Assembly: GCA_965223325.1 (NCBI GenBank)
Contig: CBDCWI010000001.1
Coordinates: 1,696,001 to 1,760,000, forward strand
DNA: 64,000 bases
Origin: Candidatus Multivoradales bacterium
GTDB taxonomy: Bacteria; Acidobacteriota; Thermoanaerobaculia; Multivoradales; Multivoraceae
Direction of reading: 5' to 3'
In this document: in pieces, positions 42,785 to 64,000 of the stretch
Position numbering within the stretch: the first letter of the stretch is position 1
How the letters are laid out: every line of letters begins with the position of its first letter
Notes under the pieces: generated by a model
What the model saw: the letters and a program-made list of their open reading frames with translations, nothing else
Databases searched by the model: none
Told to the model about the DNA's origin: nothing
Program-made: the position numbers and the translations under genes

Positions 42785-42801
42785 AGCAACGCCTGTGCCA
42801 A
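42785..42801 (-). promoter_or_regulatory. sigma54 -24/-12 promoter
   Basis: Minus strand TTGGCACAGGCGTTGCT, near-consensus, about 95 bp upstream of ATG 42690. Confidence 0.8.
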
Positions 42802-57301: not shown

Positions 57302-57428
57302 CCCCCGATGTTGTCCGGTACCAGAGCGCTTGTAAAGCGCTTCTCGGCCAACCGGCCGACTACGACTCAGCCGCTTGGCGTCGATACCATGCGGAGAGGA
57401 CGCGGAATCGCCGCGACGTCTCGAAGCC

Positions 57429-59108
57429 ATGCCAATCATCTCTGTCACCGCCGGCCCACGTGTCGGAACCACCCTGCACTTCGAGGAAACCGCGGTCCTT
57501 GGCCGCGGCGACGGAGCCGATCTCGATCTTGGTGACCGTTCCGCCTCGCGGCTGCACGCCCGCATCGAGCTCGATGGCCGACGCTTCTATCTCGCCGATT
57601 TGGGGAGTGGAAACGGCAGCTTCCTCAACGGCATTCGGGTCATCGGCCGAGCGCCACTCTCCCATCGGGACATCGTGCGGCTCGGCATGAGCCGCCTGGA
57701 GTTTCTGCTCGAGGGCGAGAACCCGCTTCAGGCATCGTCTTCGGCAGTGGCGCTCGTCGACAGCGAGTTGAAGCTCGAACGCTCGCGCTCGTTCGCCCTC
57801 TCGAGTCTCGAAATCGCGCGCCAGATCGGCGGCGATGACCAGTCTGGCGAGGAGGTGACCGCCGGTGGCCTCCATCAGCGCCTCGAACTGCTGCACGACC
57901 TCAGCGCCATCACCACCGAAACGTTGGACCTCCACCGAGTGCTCTCGCGCTCGCTCGAGATCCTGTTCAACAGCTTCAGCACCGTCGATCGCGGCTTCGT
58001 AGTGCGCTACGACGCCCCCACGGGTGAGTTCACCCCGGTTGTCGCTCGCACCCGTGACGGTGAAGCGATCGAGATCCCGGCCAGCCTCACCCTCTTGCGC
58101 GCCGCAGTCACCGCCAGTGAAGTTCTCTTGTGTGCCGACGCCAAACAGGACCAGCGCTACGCCGAGGCGGTCTCGATGCACGAGATCAACCTCCGATCGG
58201 TGGTCTGCGTTCCGCTGGTGATCGAGAATCGCACCTACGGCGTGCTGCAGCTCGACAGCACGAGCGCGCCCTGGGCAGTCACCGACCAGGACCTGGCCAC
58301 CCTCGCCAGCGCCGGCGCCAGCATCGCTCACGCGATGGCCAACGCCGAGCTGCATCGGCGGCTCACCGAGCGCGAGGTCGAGCGACACGACCTCGAGCTC
58401 GCCCGCTCGATCCAGCAACGCTTCCTTCCCACCGCGCCACCTGAGATCAAAGGCTGGGAGTTCGCCGCCGCCTATCAACCCGCGCAAGCGGTCGGCGGTG
58501 ATCTCTACTCCTTCGTCGACTTGGCCGACGGGAAGCTGGGCATCGCACTGGGTGACGTTTCTGGGAAGGGCATCCCGGCCGCGCTCATGATGGCGCGCAT
58601 GATGAGCGATCTGCGTTACCTTTCGGTGCGCTCGGACGACCCGTCGGCAGTCCTCTCGATGCTCAATTCTGAGCTCGCCCAGCGCGGCGGCGACGGTCTC
58701 TTCATGACCATGCTCTACATGGTGCTCGACCTCCAGAAGGGACTGTTGACAATCGCCAACGCCGGCCACATGGACCCGATCGTGCGACGAGCCCATGGTG
58801 CGGTGGCCGACCTCGAGACGTCGAGGGGCCCGGCGCTCGGCCTCGACGAGTTCGCCAGCTACCCACCGGCCCGCGCACACCTCGATCGGGGAGACACAGT
58901 CCTCTTCTACTCCGACGGGCTCACCGAAGCGGCAGGGCACCAGAGTGGCGAGCGCTTCGGCCTCGGTCGACTCTGTCGAGCGCTCTTGGCGAGTGAACCG
59001 AGCGCCAGTCAGCTGGTCGACTCGGTTCTCGGCCAGGTGGCACAGTTCGCCGCCGACGACCGCCCGCAAGACGATCTGACCGCGGTCGCGGTCTCACGTT
59101 CCCCTTGA
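57429..59108 (+). CDS. FHA-GAF-SpoIIE (PP2C) Ser/Thr phosphatase
   Basis: FHA GR...SRLHA...GSGNGSFLNG; GAF SVVCVPL...GVLQLD; PP2C VGGDLY, GDVSGKG, YSDGLTE, DDLT. Confidence 0.92.
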   Translation: MPIISVTAGPRVGTTLHFEETAVLGRGDGADLDLGDRSASRLHARIELDGRRFYLADLGSGNGSFLNGIRVIGRAPLSHRDIVRLGMSRLEFLLEGENPLQASSSAVALVDSELKLERSRSFALSSLEIARQIGGDDQSGEEVTAGGLHQRLELLHDLSAITTETLDLHRVLSRSLEILFNSFSTVDRGFVVRYDAPTGEFTPVVARTRDGEAIEIPASLTLLRAAVTASEVLLCADAKQDQRYAEAVSMHEINLRSVVCVPLVIENRTYGVLQLDSTSAPWAVTDQDLATLASAGASIAHAMANAELHRRLTEREVERHDLELARSIQQRFLPTAPPEIKGWEFAAAYQPAQAVGGDLYSFVDLADGKLGIALGDVSGKGIPAALMMARMMSDLRYLSVRSDDPSAVLSMLNSELAQRGGDGLFMTMLYMVLDLQKGLLTIANAGHMDPIVRRAHGAVADLETSRGPALGLDEFASYPPARAHLDRGDTVLFYSDGLTEAAGHQSGERFGLGRLCRALLASEPSASQLVDSVLGQVAQFAADDRPQDDLTAVAVSRSP

Positions 59109-59115
59109 AGGGAGC

Positions 59116-59619
59116 TCAGGCCGACGCCTCGCCGCCGCTCAGGAGCTCAGCCGCTAACGCCACCCGCCGGTCGTCACGCATCGCCGGCGACGCCCCGGTT
59201 GCCGACGCTCTATCCGACTCGCCTTCGAGCAGGCCTCGAATCAGGTCACAAATCGCGGCGACCCGGTGACGCTCTTTGAGCTCGCGCAGCGCATCGGCGC
59301 GCGACTTGCGGATATCGAAGAGCCGCTTCATGCCCGCAATCTCGAACACCTGCTCGACGTCCCGGTTGGGCGCACAGACAATCATGTGACCACCCTCAGC
59401 CGACAGTCGGCGCGTTACCATCACCAGCACCCGCAGACCGGCACTCGAGATGTAGTCGAGGCCGGCCAGGTCGAGCAGCAGCTCACGACGGTCATCCTCG
59501 AGCTCGGCATTGAGGACCCGCGACAACTCGTCGCTCGAACGCGAATCGAGCTCACCAGCCAGGACCACCAGACGGACGTTCTGCACGTCGCGCACCTCGG
59601 TGTTGAACGACTGAGACAC
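59116..59619 (-). CDS. STAS domain anti-sigma factor antagonist with a C-terminal extension
   Basis: LAGELDS...LDLAGLDYISSAGLRVL with the phosphoacceptor Ser. Confidence 0.88.
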   Translation of the reverse strand: MSQSFNTEVRDVQNVRLVVLAGELDSRSSDELSRVLNAELEDDRRELLLDLAGLDYISSAGLRVLVMVTRRLSAEGGHMIVCAPNRDVEQVFEIAGMKRLFDIRKSRADALRELKERHRVAAICDLIRGLLEGESDRASATGASPAMRDDRRVALAAELLSGGEASA

Positions 59620-59624
59620 CTGGT

Positions 59625-60425
59625 TCAGCCCGGAGTCGTCTGCTTGAAGACCAGATCGACGATCCCGCAGCGCAGGCGAGCACCGTCCTCGAGAGGGTGA
59701 TCGGCGCCTGCGGCGAGCCTCTCGCTGCCCAGGAAAGTGCCATTGGACACACCGGGCTCCTCGCACAGGTAGAACCGATCAGACTTCCAGTGAATGCGCG
59801 CGTGCCGGCGCGACAAAGACCGGCCGGAGTCGATCTCGGTGAGGTCGATCTCGGGCGAGGTCCCGCTCGTCGAGTCGTAACGCCCGATGATCGCGACCTG
59901 CTGGGGTGAAAGCGGGAACTGAGTGCCGCTCGCCTCGTGCACCAACACCGCCGAGGCTGCTGTCGCTCCTGGAAGGGGTGGCGGCTGTGGGCCGTCGCCG
60001 GCGACTGGCGTCTCGAGCTCGGCGCCGGTTCGCAACGGTGCAGCCGCGATTTCGTCTGCCCGTGCCTGCGCAGCTTCGTGCTGATAGAGGCGCCGCGAGA
60101 GCTTGCGGAGCATCCGAATCAGAAGTTCGGGCTCCTGGCGCAAGATCCCAGCGAAAGTGGCCGCATCGATCGGCAGGAGCTGACAGTTCGCCCCGGCCAC
60201 TGCCGTCGCACGCCGTGGGGTGCCCTCGAGCAGCGACATCTCGCCAAAGAAGTCACCCTTTTCGATCACCCCGAGGTCTCGTTCGGCGTTGCCAAAGCGT
60301 CGCACCATGCGCACCGTTCCGGAGGCGACGATGAACATGTCCCTGCCCTCGGAGCCCTGGTCGTAGACCGTCGTGCCCTCTCTGAATGCGACCAGCAGGT
60401 CGCTACTTTCTGATTGCGAACTCAC
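59625..60425 (-). CDS. cyclic-nucleotide-binding plus FHA domain protein
   Basis: cNMP GDFFGEMSLLEGTPRRATA; FHA IGR...SLSRRHARI...VSNGTF. Start estimated at GTG 60425. Confidence 0.88.
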   Translation of the reverse strand: MSSQSESSDLLVAFREGTTVYDQGSEGRDMFIVASGTVRMVRRFGNAERDLGVIEKGDFFGEMSLLEGTPRRATAVAGANCQLLPIDAATFAGILRQEPELLIRMLRKLSRRLYQHEAAQARADEIAAAPLRTGAELETPVAGDGPQPPPLPGATAASAVLVHEASGTQFPLSPQQVAIIGRYDSTSGTSPEIDLTEIDSGRSLSRRHARIHWKSDRFYLCEEPGVSNGTFLGSERLAAGADHPLEDGARLRCGIVDLVFKQTTPG

Positions 60426-60628
60426 GTTGCCGCCTGCCGGGCCTTCGATGGTTGAGTCTGTGGGCTTGTGCTCGATTGGGGCGGCAGTATAGCCGCGCCT
60501 TCGACCGGGCTCCTGCGTCATCGAATCGAGCCAGGGTCGGTGGCATTCCCAGGGATATTTCAGGTTGCGTTTCGGCGTCTTTGTAGGTATCTTCGGAGAT
60601 CCGATTCGCTGGGTTGCGCTTTCTTTGC

Positions 60629-61981
60629 ATGATGCCTGAGGAGCAGCGTTCGAAACCGGAAGCTCTCTGGCCTTTCGTCCTCCGAGGAGGCACAACGCAA
60701 CCTCACCGCCGGCCTTTTCGGGACCGCTACCTTCACCTTCACTTGGGGACCACGCGCCCCGAACCTTTGACTTTGACCACCCCAGGCAACAAACCCAGCA
60801 GGCCGAAGACTGGTCCGACATGGCTGGCGCCCTCCGACGGAGCCCTGCGAACCGACACCAAGCTGTCTCCAGTCGCCCGACGGATTCGCGAAGCGTCGAT
60901 CAAACAGTGGGGTGAGGAGAGCGCTGTCGAAATCGTCGGGCGCTCGCAGTCGATGGTGTCGCTCCTGGAGCGCCTCGAGAAGATGGCTCCGTTTGACGAA
61001 CCAGTCCTGATTCTCGGTGAGAGCGGTGTCGGCAAGGAAGCTCTCTCGCAATCCATCTATTTGCTCGGCGAACGCACGGCAAAGCCCCTCGTCCCGGTGA
61101 ACTGCCCGCAGTACCAGGAAGGCAATCTGACCGTCAGCGAGCTCTTCGGGCACAAGAAGGGCAGCTTCACCGGCGCCGCCAGCGATCGCAAGGGCTGCTT
61201 CGAGACCGCCGACGGTGGCATCGTTTTCCTCGACGAGGTCGCCGACCTGCACATGAGCGCCCAGGTGATGTTGCTGCGCGCGCTTGCGAGCGGCGAGTTC
61301 CAGCCACTCGGCTCAGACCAGACCAAACGAGTCGACGTGCGGGTCATCGCCGCAACCAACCGCTCTCTCAACCAGCTGGCCGAGAACCGCGAGTTCCGGC
61401 GTGACCTGATTTTCAGGCTGCGCTACTTCCAGATTCACGTTCCGCCCCTACGCGAACGCGACGGCGACTGGCTCCTGTTGCTCGATCACTTCTTATTGAA
61501 CATGCACCAACGCTACGGCGTCCAGAAGCGCTTCTCCGATGCGTCGCTGCAACTGCTCGAGACCTATCCGTGGCCGGGCAACGTACGCGAGCTGATTACC
61601 GTCACCACGATGGGCTACGCCCTGGCCGAAAGGGACGTCATCGAGCCCCGCGACTTCCTCGCTCAGCTCGAGGAAGAGCGGCAACCCGAAACTCCCGACG
61701 AAAAACTCGCCACGAGCGACGAAGGGCTCGATTCGCTCTATCGCTCGCTGACCTCGAGCGATGGCAACTTCTGGGAGCTGCTCCAGGAGCCGTTCCTCGA
61801 GCGCGACCTCAATCGCCGGCAGGTCCGTCGTCTCGTCGGTCGCGGCCTGCGCGAGACCAACGGCAGCTACCGCGATCTCTGCGCGGTGTGGAACATCCAG
61901 CCCCAGCGCTACCAGAAGTTCATGGATTTCTTGAGGCATCACCGACTCAAGCCCAAGTCGTACCAGGACACAGACCTCTGA
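60629..61981 (+). CDS. sigma54 enhancer-binding protein lacking a receiver domain
   Basis: GESGVGKE, ELFGHKKGSFTGA, FLDEV, WPGNVREL; atypical C-terminus FWELLQEPFLERDL...YQKFMDFL. Start uncertain. Confidence 0.88.
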   Translation: MMPEEQRSKPEALWPFVLRGGTTQPHRRPFRDRYLHLHLGTTRPEPLTLTTPGNKPSRPKTGPTWLAPSDGALRTDTKLSPVARRIREASIKQWGEESAVEIVGRSQSMVSLLERLEKMAPFDEPVLILGESGVGKEALSQSIYLLGERTAKPLVPVNCPQYQEGNLTVSELFGHKKGSFTGAASDRKGCFETADGGIVFLDEVADLHMSAQVMLLRALASGEFQPLGSDQTKRVDVRVIAATNRSLNQLAENREFRRDLIFRLRYFQIHVPPLRERDGDWLLLLDHFLLNMHQRYGVQKRFSDASLQLLETYPWPGNVRELITVTTMGYALAERDVIEPRDFLAQLEEERQPETPDEKLATSDEGLDSLYRSLTSSDGNFWELLQEPFLERDLNRRQVRRLVGRGLRETNGSYRDLCAVWNIQPQRYQKFMDFLRHHRLKPKSYQDTDL

Positions 61982-62168
61982 TTGCCTACGATGCAAAGGG
62001 CGCACAACGGCCCTCATGTTCTGGAGGCAGCGCTCCATCGATGGAGCGACCGCTCTTTACCGCCCACAACGTTGGCGCCCTCAGGCGGTTGCCAAGCAAC
62101 CAATGCCCTACGGATCAAGTGCCCTGTTTAAAGCACCTTGCAGTCTGCGACGCAACGATCGGGAGTAG

Positions 62169-62185
62169 TTGGCACAGGCTGTGCT
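62169..62185 (+). promoter_or_regulatory. sigma54 -24/-12 promoter of the RiPP precursors
   Basis: TTGGCACAGGCTGTGCT (GG-N10-GC), about 70 bp upstream of precursor 1 and directly downstream of a bEBP gene. Confidence 0.75.
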
Positions 62186-62257
62186 CTCTAGCTGACTGAT
62201 CGTCAACCCCTCTCTCGGCCTGCAACAGGCCATCAATAAACCCAAGGAGATTCAGCA

Positions 62258-62590
62258 ATGGAAATGACCCGAGGCGAAATGCAGGACCTGCTCGGCAAGT
62301 TCGCAGCCGAAAGCAACACCTACCGTGACCGACTCAAGAACGACCCCAAAGAGGTCATTCAGCGCCAGTTCGGCATCGACGTGCCGGGTGCCGTGAACAT
62401 CAAAGTCGTCGAAGAGTCGGCCGACACCGTCTACGTCGTGCTCCCGCACACCGTCGAGCAGGGCGATGAGCTCTCTGACGCCGATCTCGAGGCGGTCGCT
62501 GGCGGCCACTCGATCATCAAAGACGCCAACTGCCAGGACTCGGACGGCGCCCTCAACACCGTCAACAACTTCGAGGCCTCCCTGGTCTAG
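62258..62590 (+). CDS. NHLP-leader RiPP precursor 1
   Basis: YRDRLKNDPKEVI...IKVVEESADTVYVVLP...ELSDADLEAVAGG leader; core HSIIKDANCQDSDGALNTVNNFEASLV; AAGGAG RBS. Confidence 0.92.
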   Translation: MEMTRGEMQDLLGKFAAESNTYRDRLKNDPKEVIQRQFGIDVPGAVNIKVVEESADTVYVVLPHTVEQGDELSDADLEAVAGGHSIIKDANCQDSDGALNTVNNFEASLV

Positions 62591-62850
62591 AAGCTGCCCG
62601 GACCTCTCGAGGTCCAAGGTGGCGGCGGCCTCTCTGGCGCCGCCACCGAGCGCCTCCGTCACCCGGGGGCGTCCAGGGTGAACCGGGTTGCCCACCTGCG
62701 GCAGCCCGGTCTCACCACCTCCCCTCCCCTCCTCTCTCTTTCCGCCCATTCACTTGTGTTCTAGATGCTGCTGTCCACCAGATAGCGCTCCGGTTTCGAG
62801 TTGTTCGAAGCCGACAGCGCCCCCCACCCAACCAATGGAGGAGATCCACC

Positions 62851-63183
62851 ATGGAAATGACCCGAGGCGAGATGCAAGACCTGCTTGGCAAGTTCGCAGC
62901 CGAAAGCAACAGCTACCGTGAGAAACTGAAGAACGATCCGCGCGAAGTCATCCAGCGCCAGTTCGGAATCGACGTTCCCGGCAGCATGAACATCAAGGTC
63001 CTCGAAGAATCGGCCGACACCGCGTACGTTGTGCTTCCCCACATCGTCGAGCAAGGTGACGAGCTCTCCGACGCCGACCTCGAAGCGGTCGCCGGCGGCC
63101 ACTCGATCATCAAAGAGGCCAACTGCCAGGACTCTGACGGTGCCCTCAACACGGTCAACAACTTCGAGATGTCGCTGGTCTAG
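62851..63183 (+). CDS. NHLP-leader RiPP precursor 2
   Basis: About 90% aa identical to precursor 1; core HSIIKEANCQDSDGALNTVNNFEMSLV; GGAGG RBS. Confidence 0.92.
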   Translation: MEMTRGEMQDLLGKFAAESNSYREKLKNDPREVIQRQFGIDVPGSMNIKVLEESADTAYVVLPHIVEQGDELSDADLEAVAGGHSIIKEANCQDSDGALNTVNNFEMSLV

Positions 63184-63207
63184 AGCCAGGGACCTCTTTC
63201 GAGATCC

Positions 63208-63252
63208 AACAAGAGCGGGAGCGCCACCTCTGGCGTTCCCGCCTCTTGTTTT
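63208..63252 (+). terminator. terminator-like hairpin between the precursors and the synthetase
   Basis: AACAAGAGCGGGAGCGCCA-CCTC-TGGCGTTCCCGCCTCTTGTTTT. Confidence 0.65.
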
Positions 63253-63339
63253 CTCGGGCGACACGCAACGTCGTCGCCCGAACCAACCATCGCTTGACAG
63301 CCCGGTCACCGCTTGAACCCTCCACCGTTCGGAGAAGGA

Positions 63340-64000
63340 ATGAACGAGGAGTCAACCTGCGAGGCTCTGACCGCTAGCGCGCGGGTCCTTTCTGAGATTC
63401 GCCTGCGCAGCGAAACGCTGTGGGAGCGGCTCGAGCGCACCCGTGGCGAAGCAGAGGCCGAGGCGCCGACAGCCGAGGCGCTGGCCCGCGCACTCTTGCC
63501 CTGGGCGAAGGCCGTCGCGCGAGGCGACCTCGGCGTCCTGTCGAAGCGGCTCTCCTGGGATGAGGTGACGACCGAAGAGGCCTATCGCGCGGTCACCGCC
63601 GAGGCACCCGACGTAGCTGACGAAACCGGTGACGATTGGACCGCCGACCTCCAACTCTTCAGCCTCTGTGCCCGTCAAACGAAGGACGAGCTCGACCGCG
63701 ACCCCGGCATCCGGGAGACCTTGCGCGCCCACGCCACTGGCCCGTTCCCGGAGATCTGGTTGCCCTGGCGACTGGTCGCAGCCGAGAAGCTGGCCAACCT
63801 GCCAGCCAAGGTGCGAGAAACCTTTGGCTCCGAGGCACTTCAGCAACTCCTGGATGTGGTCCACAACGAGCTGACCTACCTCGGCGAAAGCGCTGCCTTC
63901 AAGCGCTTCGAAACGCTTCGCGCCGAGGCAGGCGGGAACCCATCGGGAATCCACGACGCCTTCGTCGGCGAGGTGCTTTCTGACCCGATTGCCGAGCTCT
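63340..64000 (+). CDS. lanM: class II lanthipeptide synthetase (LanM/ProcM-like) N-terminus, truncated by the window edge
   Basis: Not in the ORF track. Manual translation from ATG 63340 (GGAGAAGG RBS): ...TLWERL...W...ARGD...SKRLSWDEV...PFPEIWLPW...HDAFVGEVLSDPIAEL, resembling the N-terminus of cyanobacterial-type LanMs. Context supports the call; catalytic motifs lie beyond the window. Confidence 0.7.
   Translation, partial: MNEESTCEALTASARVLSEIRLRSETLWERLERTRGEAEAEAPTAEALARALLPWAKAVARGDLGVLSKRLSWDEVTTEEAYRAVTAEAPDVADETGDDWTADLQLFSLCARQTKDELDRDPGIRETLRAHATGPFPEIWLPWRLVAAEKLANLPAKVRETFGSEALQQLLDVVHNELTYLGESAAFKRFETLRAEAGGNPSGIHDAFVGEVLSDPIAEL

Follow-up and report, generated by a model that had tools for sequence, protein, structure and literature searches.

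The stretch of DNA analysed here (hereafter the window; 64,000 nucleotides, C1:1696001-1760000 of the genome) belongs to an acidobacterium of the class Thermoanaerobaculia, and carries at its 3' end two tandem precursor genes, A1 and A2, of a ribosomally synthesised and post-translationally modified peptide (RiPP), preceded by a sigma-54 type promoter and followed by the 5' part of a lanM gene. Analysis of the window, the remainder of the genome, and related genomes leads us to propose, with a probability of roughly 75%, that these genes represent a complete, sigma-54-controlled class II lanthipeptide cluster with nitrile hydratase-like leader peptides (NHLP), of which the product would contain one Cys9-Thr18 ring and is most likely unacylated.

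A1 (62258..62590, plus strand) and A2 (62851..63183, plus strand) are ATG-started open reading frames (ORFs) of 110 aa. Both score above the curated cut-off of 50.9 bits for TIGR03793, the NHLP leader profile, with 69.0 bits (E 2.4e-19) for A1 and 66.5 bits (E 1.4e-18) for A2 over residues 5-83, and both also match PF02979. The leader match ends with Gly-Gly at residues 82-83, dividing the precursors into an 83-aa leader and a 27-aa core that contains a single Cys (Cys9) and a single Lys (Lys5) besides Ser2, Ser12, Thr18, and Ser25, at a net charge of about -3. Positions 6 and 24 alone distinguish the two cores, A1 being the variant with Asp6 and Ala24. The calculated monoisotopic mass before modification is 2874.345 Da for the A1 core and 2948.364 Da for the core of A2 and of the two further copies A3 and A4 described below, each dehydration lowering it by 18.011 Da. 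The sequence-only reading of this locus, which had described twin tandem 110-aa NHLP-type precursors with these core residues, at most one thioether ring per peptide, and no resemblance of the core to a characterised RiPP, is borne out on these points by the profile scores, the translation, and the single Cys, and the core is still without a characterised counterpart. Modelling of the precursor with AlphaFold2 from 55 aligned sequences predicted a folded leader, with block values of the predicted local distance difference test (pLDDT) of 79-92 over residues 11-60. The whole genome encodes four precursors above the TIGR03793 cut-off, and of the 61 candidates retrieved from the protein collection, 54 proved homologous at E<=1e-3, which places the predicted precursors beyond chance; the database proteins P0003-P0009 are 66-77% identical to the precursor, with P0003 at 77%.

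The lanM part in the window (63340..64000, plus strand) covers the first ~220 of 1078-1087 codons of a gene that ends at C1:1762576, outside the window, and that may start with TTG at 63313 or with ATG at 63340, the latter preceded by GGAG. The 229 in-window residues alone gave no family match in Pfam and TIGRFAM-type profile scans, whereas the full ORF in the genome (L004 1313-4576, where L004 is C1:1758001-1778000) encodes 1087 aa with the domains DUF4135 (PF13575; E 6e-74) and LANC_like (PF05147; E 6e-31), and reaches 509.6 bits on TIGR03897, for which the cut-off is 304. The earlier suggestion that the ORF at 63340 resembles a LanM is thus correct for the gene as it stands in the genome, although the resemblance could not be demonstrated from the window residues; the dehydratase and cyclase domains anticipated downstream are both present with intact motifs. 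Alignment to LicM2 (6st5; E 8e-40) revealed that the DLHGEN, YKPRS, and RPTREYG motifs are kept, and that the cyclase site consists of the His of AHG, Cys946, and a CCG motif at 991-993 (Cys991, Cys992) in place of CHG. The kinase and elimination motifs of LanM enzymes, as well as their zinc ligands, have established functional roles. The CCG-type motif is found in 45 of the 47 full-length LanMs of related clusters, this LanM included, and according to the excerpted text of PMC10783134 it marks the ProcM-family LanMs and their type of zinc site. The enzyme is therefore predicted to carry a ProcM-like Cys-Cys-Cys zinc site. No other DUF4135 gene is present in the genome.

The lanM stop codon and the start codon of the following gene share nucleotides (GTGA), and the gene order continues with two TolC-like genes (OEP1 and OEP2), an NHLP-associated HlyD, a C39-peptidase ABC transporter (ABC1), a second ABC transporter (ABC2), and a protein with DUF7005 and HATPase_c_2 domains; DUF7005 is not mentioned in the literature searched. 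All three members of the NHLM export system exceed their cut-offs, i.e., HlyD on TIGR03794 (277 bits versus 156), ABC1 on TIGR03796 (1095 versus 853; the C39 Cys and His are visible), and ABC2 on TIGR03797 (849 versus 709). ABC2 has an extra N-terminus of ~430 residues (L004 12390-13680; C1:1770390-1771680) with an FHA (phosphothreonine-binding) domain, which also aligns in verrucomicrobial homologues (about 990 residues aligned) and might couple export to phospho-signalling. Pfam scans of the N-terminal extensions of ABC2, OEP1, and OEP2, of two small downstream ORFs, and of the C-terminus of the upstream activator returned FHA and OEP matches only. Among the downstream genes that the sequence-only reading had proposed to look for, C39-ABC and HlyD were found, with the TolC-like genes in addition, but radical S-adenosylmethionine (rSAM) and GNAT tailoring genes were not: tailoring families, whether rSAM, GNAT, arginase, or others, are absent from the main ORFs of L004 and from 44 alternative ORFs with a length of 100 aa or more, and neither an rSAM epimerase nor a peptide arginase occurs in the scanned ORFs of at least 100 aa in L004 1-18000 and in window positions 43778-64000. 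The term proteusin is consequently appropriate in the broad sense of any NHLP-derived RiPP, as used in the excerpted text of PMC12537861, and not in the narrow (polytheonamide/landornamide) sense. By their domains and profile scores, the predicted proteins combine an NHLP leader RiPP precursor, class II LanM domains of the ProcM-like subgroup, and NHLM export, and the cluster is genuine, complete, and apparently functional.

A sigma-54 type -24/-12 promoter, TGGCACAGGCTGTGCT, is located at 62170..62185 (plus strand), 88 nt before the A1 ATG, and a perfect dyad, GCTCCATCGATGGAGC (62032..62047, unstranded), is found 123 nt upstream of this element as a candidate activator binding site; rpoN is present in the genome. 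The four precursor copies, also detected by tblastn, include two orphan genes, A3 (C1:1343898-1344230, L006 9899-10231, plus strand) and A4 (C2:3680647-3680979, L005 9999-10331, minus strand), which sit among unrelated housekeeping genes (an MFS transporter with sugar genes, and HrpB, TPR, and Mfd, respectively), encode the same core as A2, and have their own promoter and dyad. The TGGCACAG-N4-TGC element recurs at -99 and -107 of these orphan genes (C1:1343799 and C2:3681086, respectively). Each of the three promoters is preceded, at a distance of 123-167 nt, by the dyad GCTCCAT-N-ATGGAGC, which takes a related form at the orphan loci. Genome-wide, 104 exact -24/-12 sites and 139 dyad-like sites were counted, the 62032..62047 dyad being the sole zero-mismatch copy among the latter. 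These sites form 5 promoter-dyad pairs, 3 of which are the precursor loci, where about 0.7 pairs would be expected by chance according to our own estimate. The other two pairs (C2:695173 and C2:4356944), inspected by ORF only, displayed no link to the cluster; the pair at C2:4355781-4357090 (minus strand), with one dyad mismatch, precedes a 262-aa ORF rich in hydrophobic stretches and may be due to chance. An exact sigma-54 consensus (TGGCAC-N5-TTGCT) at 42785-42800 (minus strand) is the only zero-mismatch site in the window, and a short tandem repeat (unit ~12 nt, three to four copies) occurs just upstream of the A3 dyad (C1:1343550-1343600).

A2 has no sigma-54 motif of its own and follows a strong, G+C-rich stem-loop without a T tract (62618..62647, plus strand) between A1 and A2. 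The predicted fold of 62585-62700 has an energy of -63 kcal/mol (z -2.65), equalled by 2 of 200 shuffles, and the stem-loop is a possible processing or attenuation structure. A terminator-like hairpin with a T-rich tail (63215..63252, plus strand) is positioned 3' of A2 and ahead of lanM, with a 12-pair stem containing 9 G-C pairs followed by CTCTTGTTTT; since the scan for terminator-like elements returned 2 sites versus 1.9 expected in shuffles, this hairpin is weak on its own.

The identical cores of A2, A3, and A4 differ pairwise by 4-7 codons, all synonymous, while their leaders differ by 16-21 synonymous and 8-15 non-synonymous codons. The core is thus more constrained than the leader, which is the reverse of the usual RiPP pattern and points to purifying selection acting on the core.

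Conservation extends to related clusters. Among 55 aligned precursors, Cys92, Gly97, and Thr101 are each at least 90% conserved. Scanning of species-representative genomes yielded 92 relatives, and 80 of these were retained; the nearest ones all bear the titles Thermoanaerobaculia or Acidobacteriota, and the others comprise Vicinamibacterales, Verrucomicrobiota, and Aquimonas. The order activator, precursor(s), LanM, OEP, OEP, HlyD, ABC1 is repeated in loci of Acidobacteriota, Verrucomicrobiota, and Aquimonas; one related cluster (L100 9383-15701, on contig C100 of genome G311) has three TolC-like genes in a row versus two here. The 147 related cores (114 distinct) include 101 distinct cores with one Cys, 7 with none, and 6 with two to four, so that the single-Cys core, which had been considered unusual, is instead the rule, and it is also found in the published DprE peptides and in kamptornamide and phaeornamide. 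In the 98 single-Cys cores of at most 45 residues, a Ser or Thr follows the Cys in all 98 and precedes it in 84, a Lys precedes the Cys in 96, and the net charge is negative in 73. Across the family, the core is conserved and not hypervariable, and clusters of this type are widespread.

Two further core features were considered. The C-terminal tail as a mimic of the beta-signal of outer-membrane proteins was rejected, the last residue being Phe in 33 and Leu in 32 of the 98 cores, and Val here. An Asp-X-Asp-Gly motif occupies residues 11-14, inside the predicted 10-residue ring, and occurs in 13 of the 98 family cores. In comparison with the P3-P6 rule for calcium-dependent lipopeptides, as given in the excerpted text of PMC12954748, the motif is offset by one position, and a calcium-binding ring as a subclade feature is speculative.

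Of 301 sampled genomes of the class, 50 contain a precursor match at 1e-5; in approximately 7 of these, the match is weak and covers residues 18-87, and we attribute it to true nitrile hydratase. Four precursor matches, distributed over several contigs, are present in each of three genomes of the same family, and a Candidatus Multivoraceae metagenome-assembled genome has nine copies at four loci, on which basis dispersed precursor copies are considered typical. A metagenome scan for closer relatives returned 3 loci with 57, 54, and 37% identity. The literature searched contains no paper describing this acidobacterial cluster family, although the supplement of Hubrich et al. may already list such clusters.

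The genes upstream of the precursors encode a signalling set. A sigma-54 enhancer-binding protein (60614..61981, plus strand), designated the activator, has a Sigma54_activat domain (E 4e-57, residues 107-275) and AAA_lid_14, with at most ~100 residues before the AAA+ domain; its listed TTG start is probably too early. It is preceded by a cNMP-binding and FHA protein (59625..60821, minus strand; cNMP_binding E 1.5e-20, FHA 3.5e-8), a STAS-domain protein of the anti-sigma-antagonist type (59116..59766, minus strand; E 1.4e-18), and an FHA-GAF-PP2C phosphatase of the SpoIIE type (57375..59108, plus strand; SpoIIE E 6e-48, FHA 8e-16, GAF 6e-12), all by Pfam. The listed starts of the STAS and cNMP-FHA proteins are probably too far upstream. 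Lon and a TonB receptor are encoded further upstream in the window. Among 65 related loci with enough sequence, 42 have an activator homologue that ends no more than 4.5 kb ahead of the first precursor, including 35 of the 41 loci with a LanM match. The literature searched contains no paper that joins lanthipeptides with sigma-54 activators.

The most prominent difference between this cluster and its relatives concerns acylation. A GNAT of ~300 aa (PF00583) follows LanM in 33 of the 38 assessable related loci, the exceptions being L034, L043, L047, L078, and L083. Because GNAT normally follows LanM and Lys nearly always precedes Cys, the cluster family of the relatives can be designated selidamide-like (lipo-lanthipeptide) on the basis of gene content. 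In the present cluster, however, the in-cluster RiPP-associated GNAT of the selidamides is lacking: neither Pfam searches of the L004 main ORFs and the 44 alternative ORFs nor tblastn with three family GNATs detected a match or a remnant in L004, and the overlap of lanM and OEP1 leaves no gap. The sole homologue of the cluster GNATs in the genome is encoded 1.19 Mb away on the minus strand (C1:569945-571042; L087 9945-11042), and matches them with E 1e-40 and ~34% identity over ~315 residues. This distal GNAT gene directly follows a gene for a fatty acyl-AMP ligase with acyl carrier protein (FAAL-ACP) and an S9 peptidase gene on one strand (C1:560659-575158; L087 659-15158), and the set converges on a gene for a 3091-aa polyunsaturated fatty acid (PUFA)-synthase-like protein with a ketosynthase, two FabA domains, and an acyltransferase. 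Genome G311, of the same family, contains an in-cluster GNAT as well as a FAAL-ACP and GNAT pair that is 56-61% identical to the pair in this genome. In a GNAT tree of 38 rows, for which the first 40 residues of the distal ORF were trimmed, the distal GNAT has a branch of 2.32 versus a median of 0.23 and falls outside the clade of the nearest relatives of its LanM. Since G311 holds both GNAT types and the branch is long, the distal gene is a separate paralogue and not a relocated copy of a cluster GNAT. As the cluster has no GNAT of its own, the product is most likely an unacylated single-ring peptide.

These data are compatible with the following model. The activator would bind the dyad upstream of the -24/-12 promoter at the three precursor loci and fire them together, and the DUF7005/HATPase_c_2, STAS, and PP2C proteins would constitute a partner-switch acting on the activator, which we presume by analogy with RsbW/RsbV/RsbU and NifL/NifA. 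LanM would bind the folded NHLP leader and dehydrate Thr18, after which its cyclase would add Cys9 to Thr18, yielding a 10-residue methyllanthionine (MeLan) ring in which the Cys is N-terminal to the Thr; the remaining Ser residues could stay intact or be dehydrated as well. ABC1 would then cleave behind the Gly-Gly and secrete the net-anionic peptide of 27 residues by way of HlyD and the TolC-like proteins, as an unacylated single-ring product unless the paralogous GNAT acts in trans.

The proposed system can be compared with known systems as described in the excerpted text of the cited papers. In the selidamides (kamptornamide, phaeornamide, and nostolysamides; Hubrich et al., 2022, PMC8784127), clusters with NHLP, LanM, and GNAT give rise to a single MeLan ring and a fatty acyl group on ornithine (Orn) or Lys, the rings being Thr11-Cys19 in kamptornamide and Cys4-Thr7 in phaeornamide, and the clade of their GNATs includes Acidobacteria (PMC8784127). 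The present cluster shares with these an NHLP leader ending in Gly-Gly, a LanM, a predicted single MeLan ring with the Cys on the N-terminal side as in phaeornamide, and a basic residue (Lys/Orn) ahead of the ring. Unlike the selidamides, it is without GNAT, arginase, and hydroxylase, its core has Lys and no Arg, it includes a sigma-54 activator, two TolC-like genes, the FHA-ABC2, and the DUF7005 kinase-like gene, its four precursor genes are at three loci, and it is known from genes alone. DprM, an NHLP-specific LanM of Desulfotomaculum sp., installs solitary Thr-derived MeLan rings on single-Cys cores (Vidya et al., 2025, PMC12537861), and the DprM/DprE system likewise uses one LanM for several NHLP precursors with at most one Cys per core, next to a C39 transporter; it differs by its divergent cores, the rSAM and RiPP recognition element genes of the dpr cluster, another phylum, and another regulation (PMC12537861). 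Haft et al. (2010, PMC2887384) had already described the combination of NHLP, LanM, and an export trio, and the NHLP/Nif11 'NHLM' clusters and the ProcM/prochlorosin system have in common with the present system the TIGR03793 leader, the TIGR03794/03796/03797 trio, a CCG-type LanM (PMC2887384, PMC10783134), and precursor genes that are scattered over the genome and served by a single LanM (PMC2887384). The prochlorosins have hypervariable cores and several rings, as opposed to one conserved core with one predicted ring here, where control would be exerted by sigma-54 and the cluster itself encodes outer-membrane components. The landornamide osp cluster, as cited in PMC12537861 and PMC8784127, also combines an NHLP precursor with a LanM (OspM), whereas the ORFs scanned here contain neither a peptide arginase nor an rSAM epimerase, and the core is without Arg.

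Several observations weigh against the proposed single-ring, unacylated lanthipeptide under sigma-54 control. AlphaFold2 assigned the precursor core a pLDDT below 50, with no hairpin or ring information, the Cys9-Thr18 topology is derived from conservation, and Ser2 would also be available for a ring, given the frequent Ser/Thr before Cys. The retained and selected Lys5 argues that acylation may still happen. Furthermore, the activator is linked to the dyad by position, and a -24/-12 regular expression matched just 39 of the 103 regions upstream of related precursor genes, and in most of these cases the gene was the first of its array. Finally, the nearest sampled relative, a 99% complete genome of the same genus, gave no precursor match with this query, on account of which the cluster is regarded as patchy in its distribution and may have been recently acquired. 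A DUF222 and HNH endonuclease gene just past the cluster (L004 18653-19990, minus strand) possibly marks a mobile-element boundary, consistent with this patchiness.

Some of these observations lend themselves to other explanations. The peptide could still be lipidated if the distal GNAT transfers a dedicated fatty acid to Lys5 in trans, yielding a split-locus, selidamide-type lipo-lanthipeptide. The distal enzyme is the only homologue of the cluster GNATs in the genome, its only homologue in each of four other genomes is an in-cluster GNAT, and the adjoining FAAL-ACP would supply the activated acyl donor, while Lys5, like the single Cys9 and Thr18, is conserved in the cores here and, under purifying selection, is retained in each of the four copies, in line with the Lys before Cys in 96 of 98 family cores. 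Nevertheless, the paralogy indicated by G311 and by the position of the distal GNAT in the tree (branch 2.32 versus a median of 0.23), the lack of a sigma-54 promoter-dyad pair near its gene, and the finding that none of the related loci contains a FAAL render this scenario unlikely. We consider it comparably unlikely that the ring is formed in the conventional N-to-C direction, from Dha2 (dehydroalanine) to Cys9, or from Ser12 to Cys9, instead of from Cys9 to Thr18. Most characterised lanthipeptide rings indeed run N-to-C, with the Ser or Thr before the Cys, most close homologues have a Ser or Thr at position 2, and 84 of 98 cores have one ahead of the Cys. However, 14 of the 98 cores have no Ser/Thr before the Cys, whereas all have one after it, and the Thr following the Gly turn is at least 90% conserved; moreover, in the excerpted descriptions, DprM uses Thr only (PMC12537861) and phaeornamide contains a Cys-to-Thr ring (PMC8784127).

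That the cluster is a decaying remnant, which lost its GNAT and makes no functional product, would account for the missing GNAT and for the failure to find the cluster in the same-genus genome, but it is very improbable, considering that all cluster ORFs are open with intact catalytic motifs, that core changes among the three dispersed copies are synonymous only, that promoter and dyad are kept at three loci, and that the overlap of the lanM stop and the OEP1 start (GTGA) is clean. A more tentative thought, to which we give somewhat less weight than to acylation in trans or to another ring, is that the conserved core acts as a secreted (lipo)peptide in a housekeeping-like capacity, e.g., as a signal, surface-active agent, or cation-binding factor, with its lipid coming from the separate FAAL-ACP-GNAT module fed by the PUFA-type synthase. 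It is suggested by the conservation of the Lys...Cys...Thr core across three phyla, in dispersed co-promoter copies, and beside the FHA/PP2C/STAS/kinase-like set, and if true, the product would be a ribosomal lipopeptide made from split loci, with a fatty acid dedicated to it, and not a variable bacteriocin.

Judged by its gene content, the cluster is a member of the selidamide-related NHLP/LanM family with standard enzymology, which leaves the class unchanged, and its distinctive predicted features are the clean absence of a GNAT, the four co-regulated precursor genes with a conserved anionic core, and the elaborate sigma-54 signalling set. It provides a complete, closed-genome example of NHLP/LanM lanthipeptides from a barely cultured acidobacterial class, as well as a natural variant without a cluster acyltransferase, of which comparison with GNAT-bearing relatives could reveal the contribution of the lipid. 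The sigma-54 promoter and dyad shared by three loci constitute a small, testable regulon for a RiPP, and the anionic, conserved core sets the peptide apart from the classical cationic lantibiotics.

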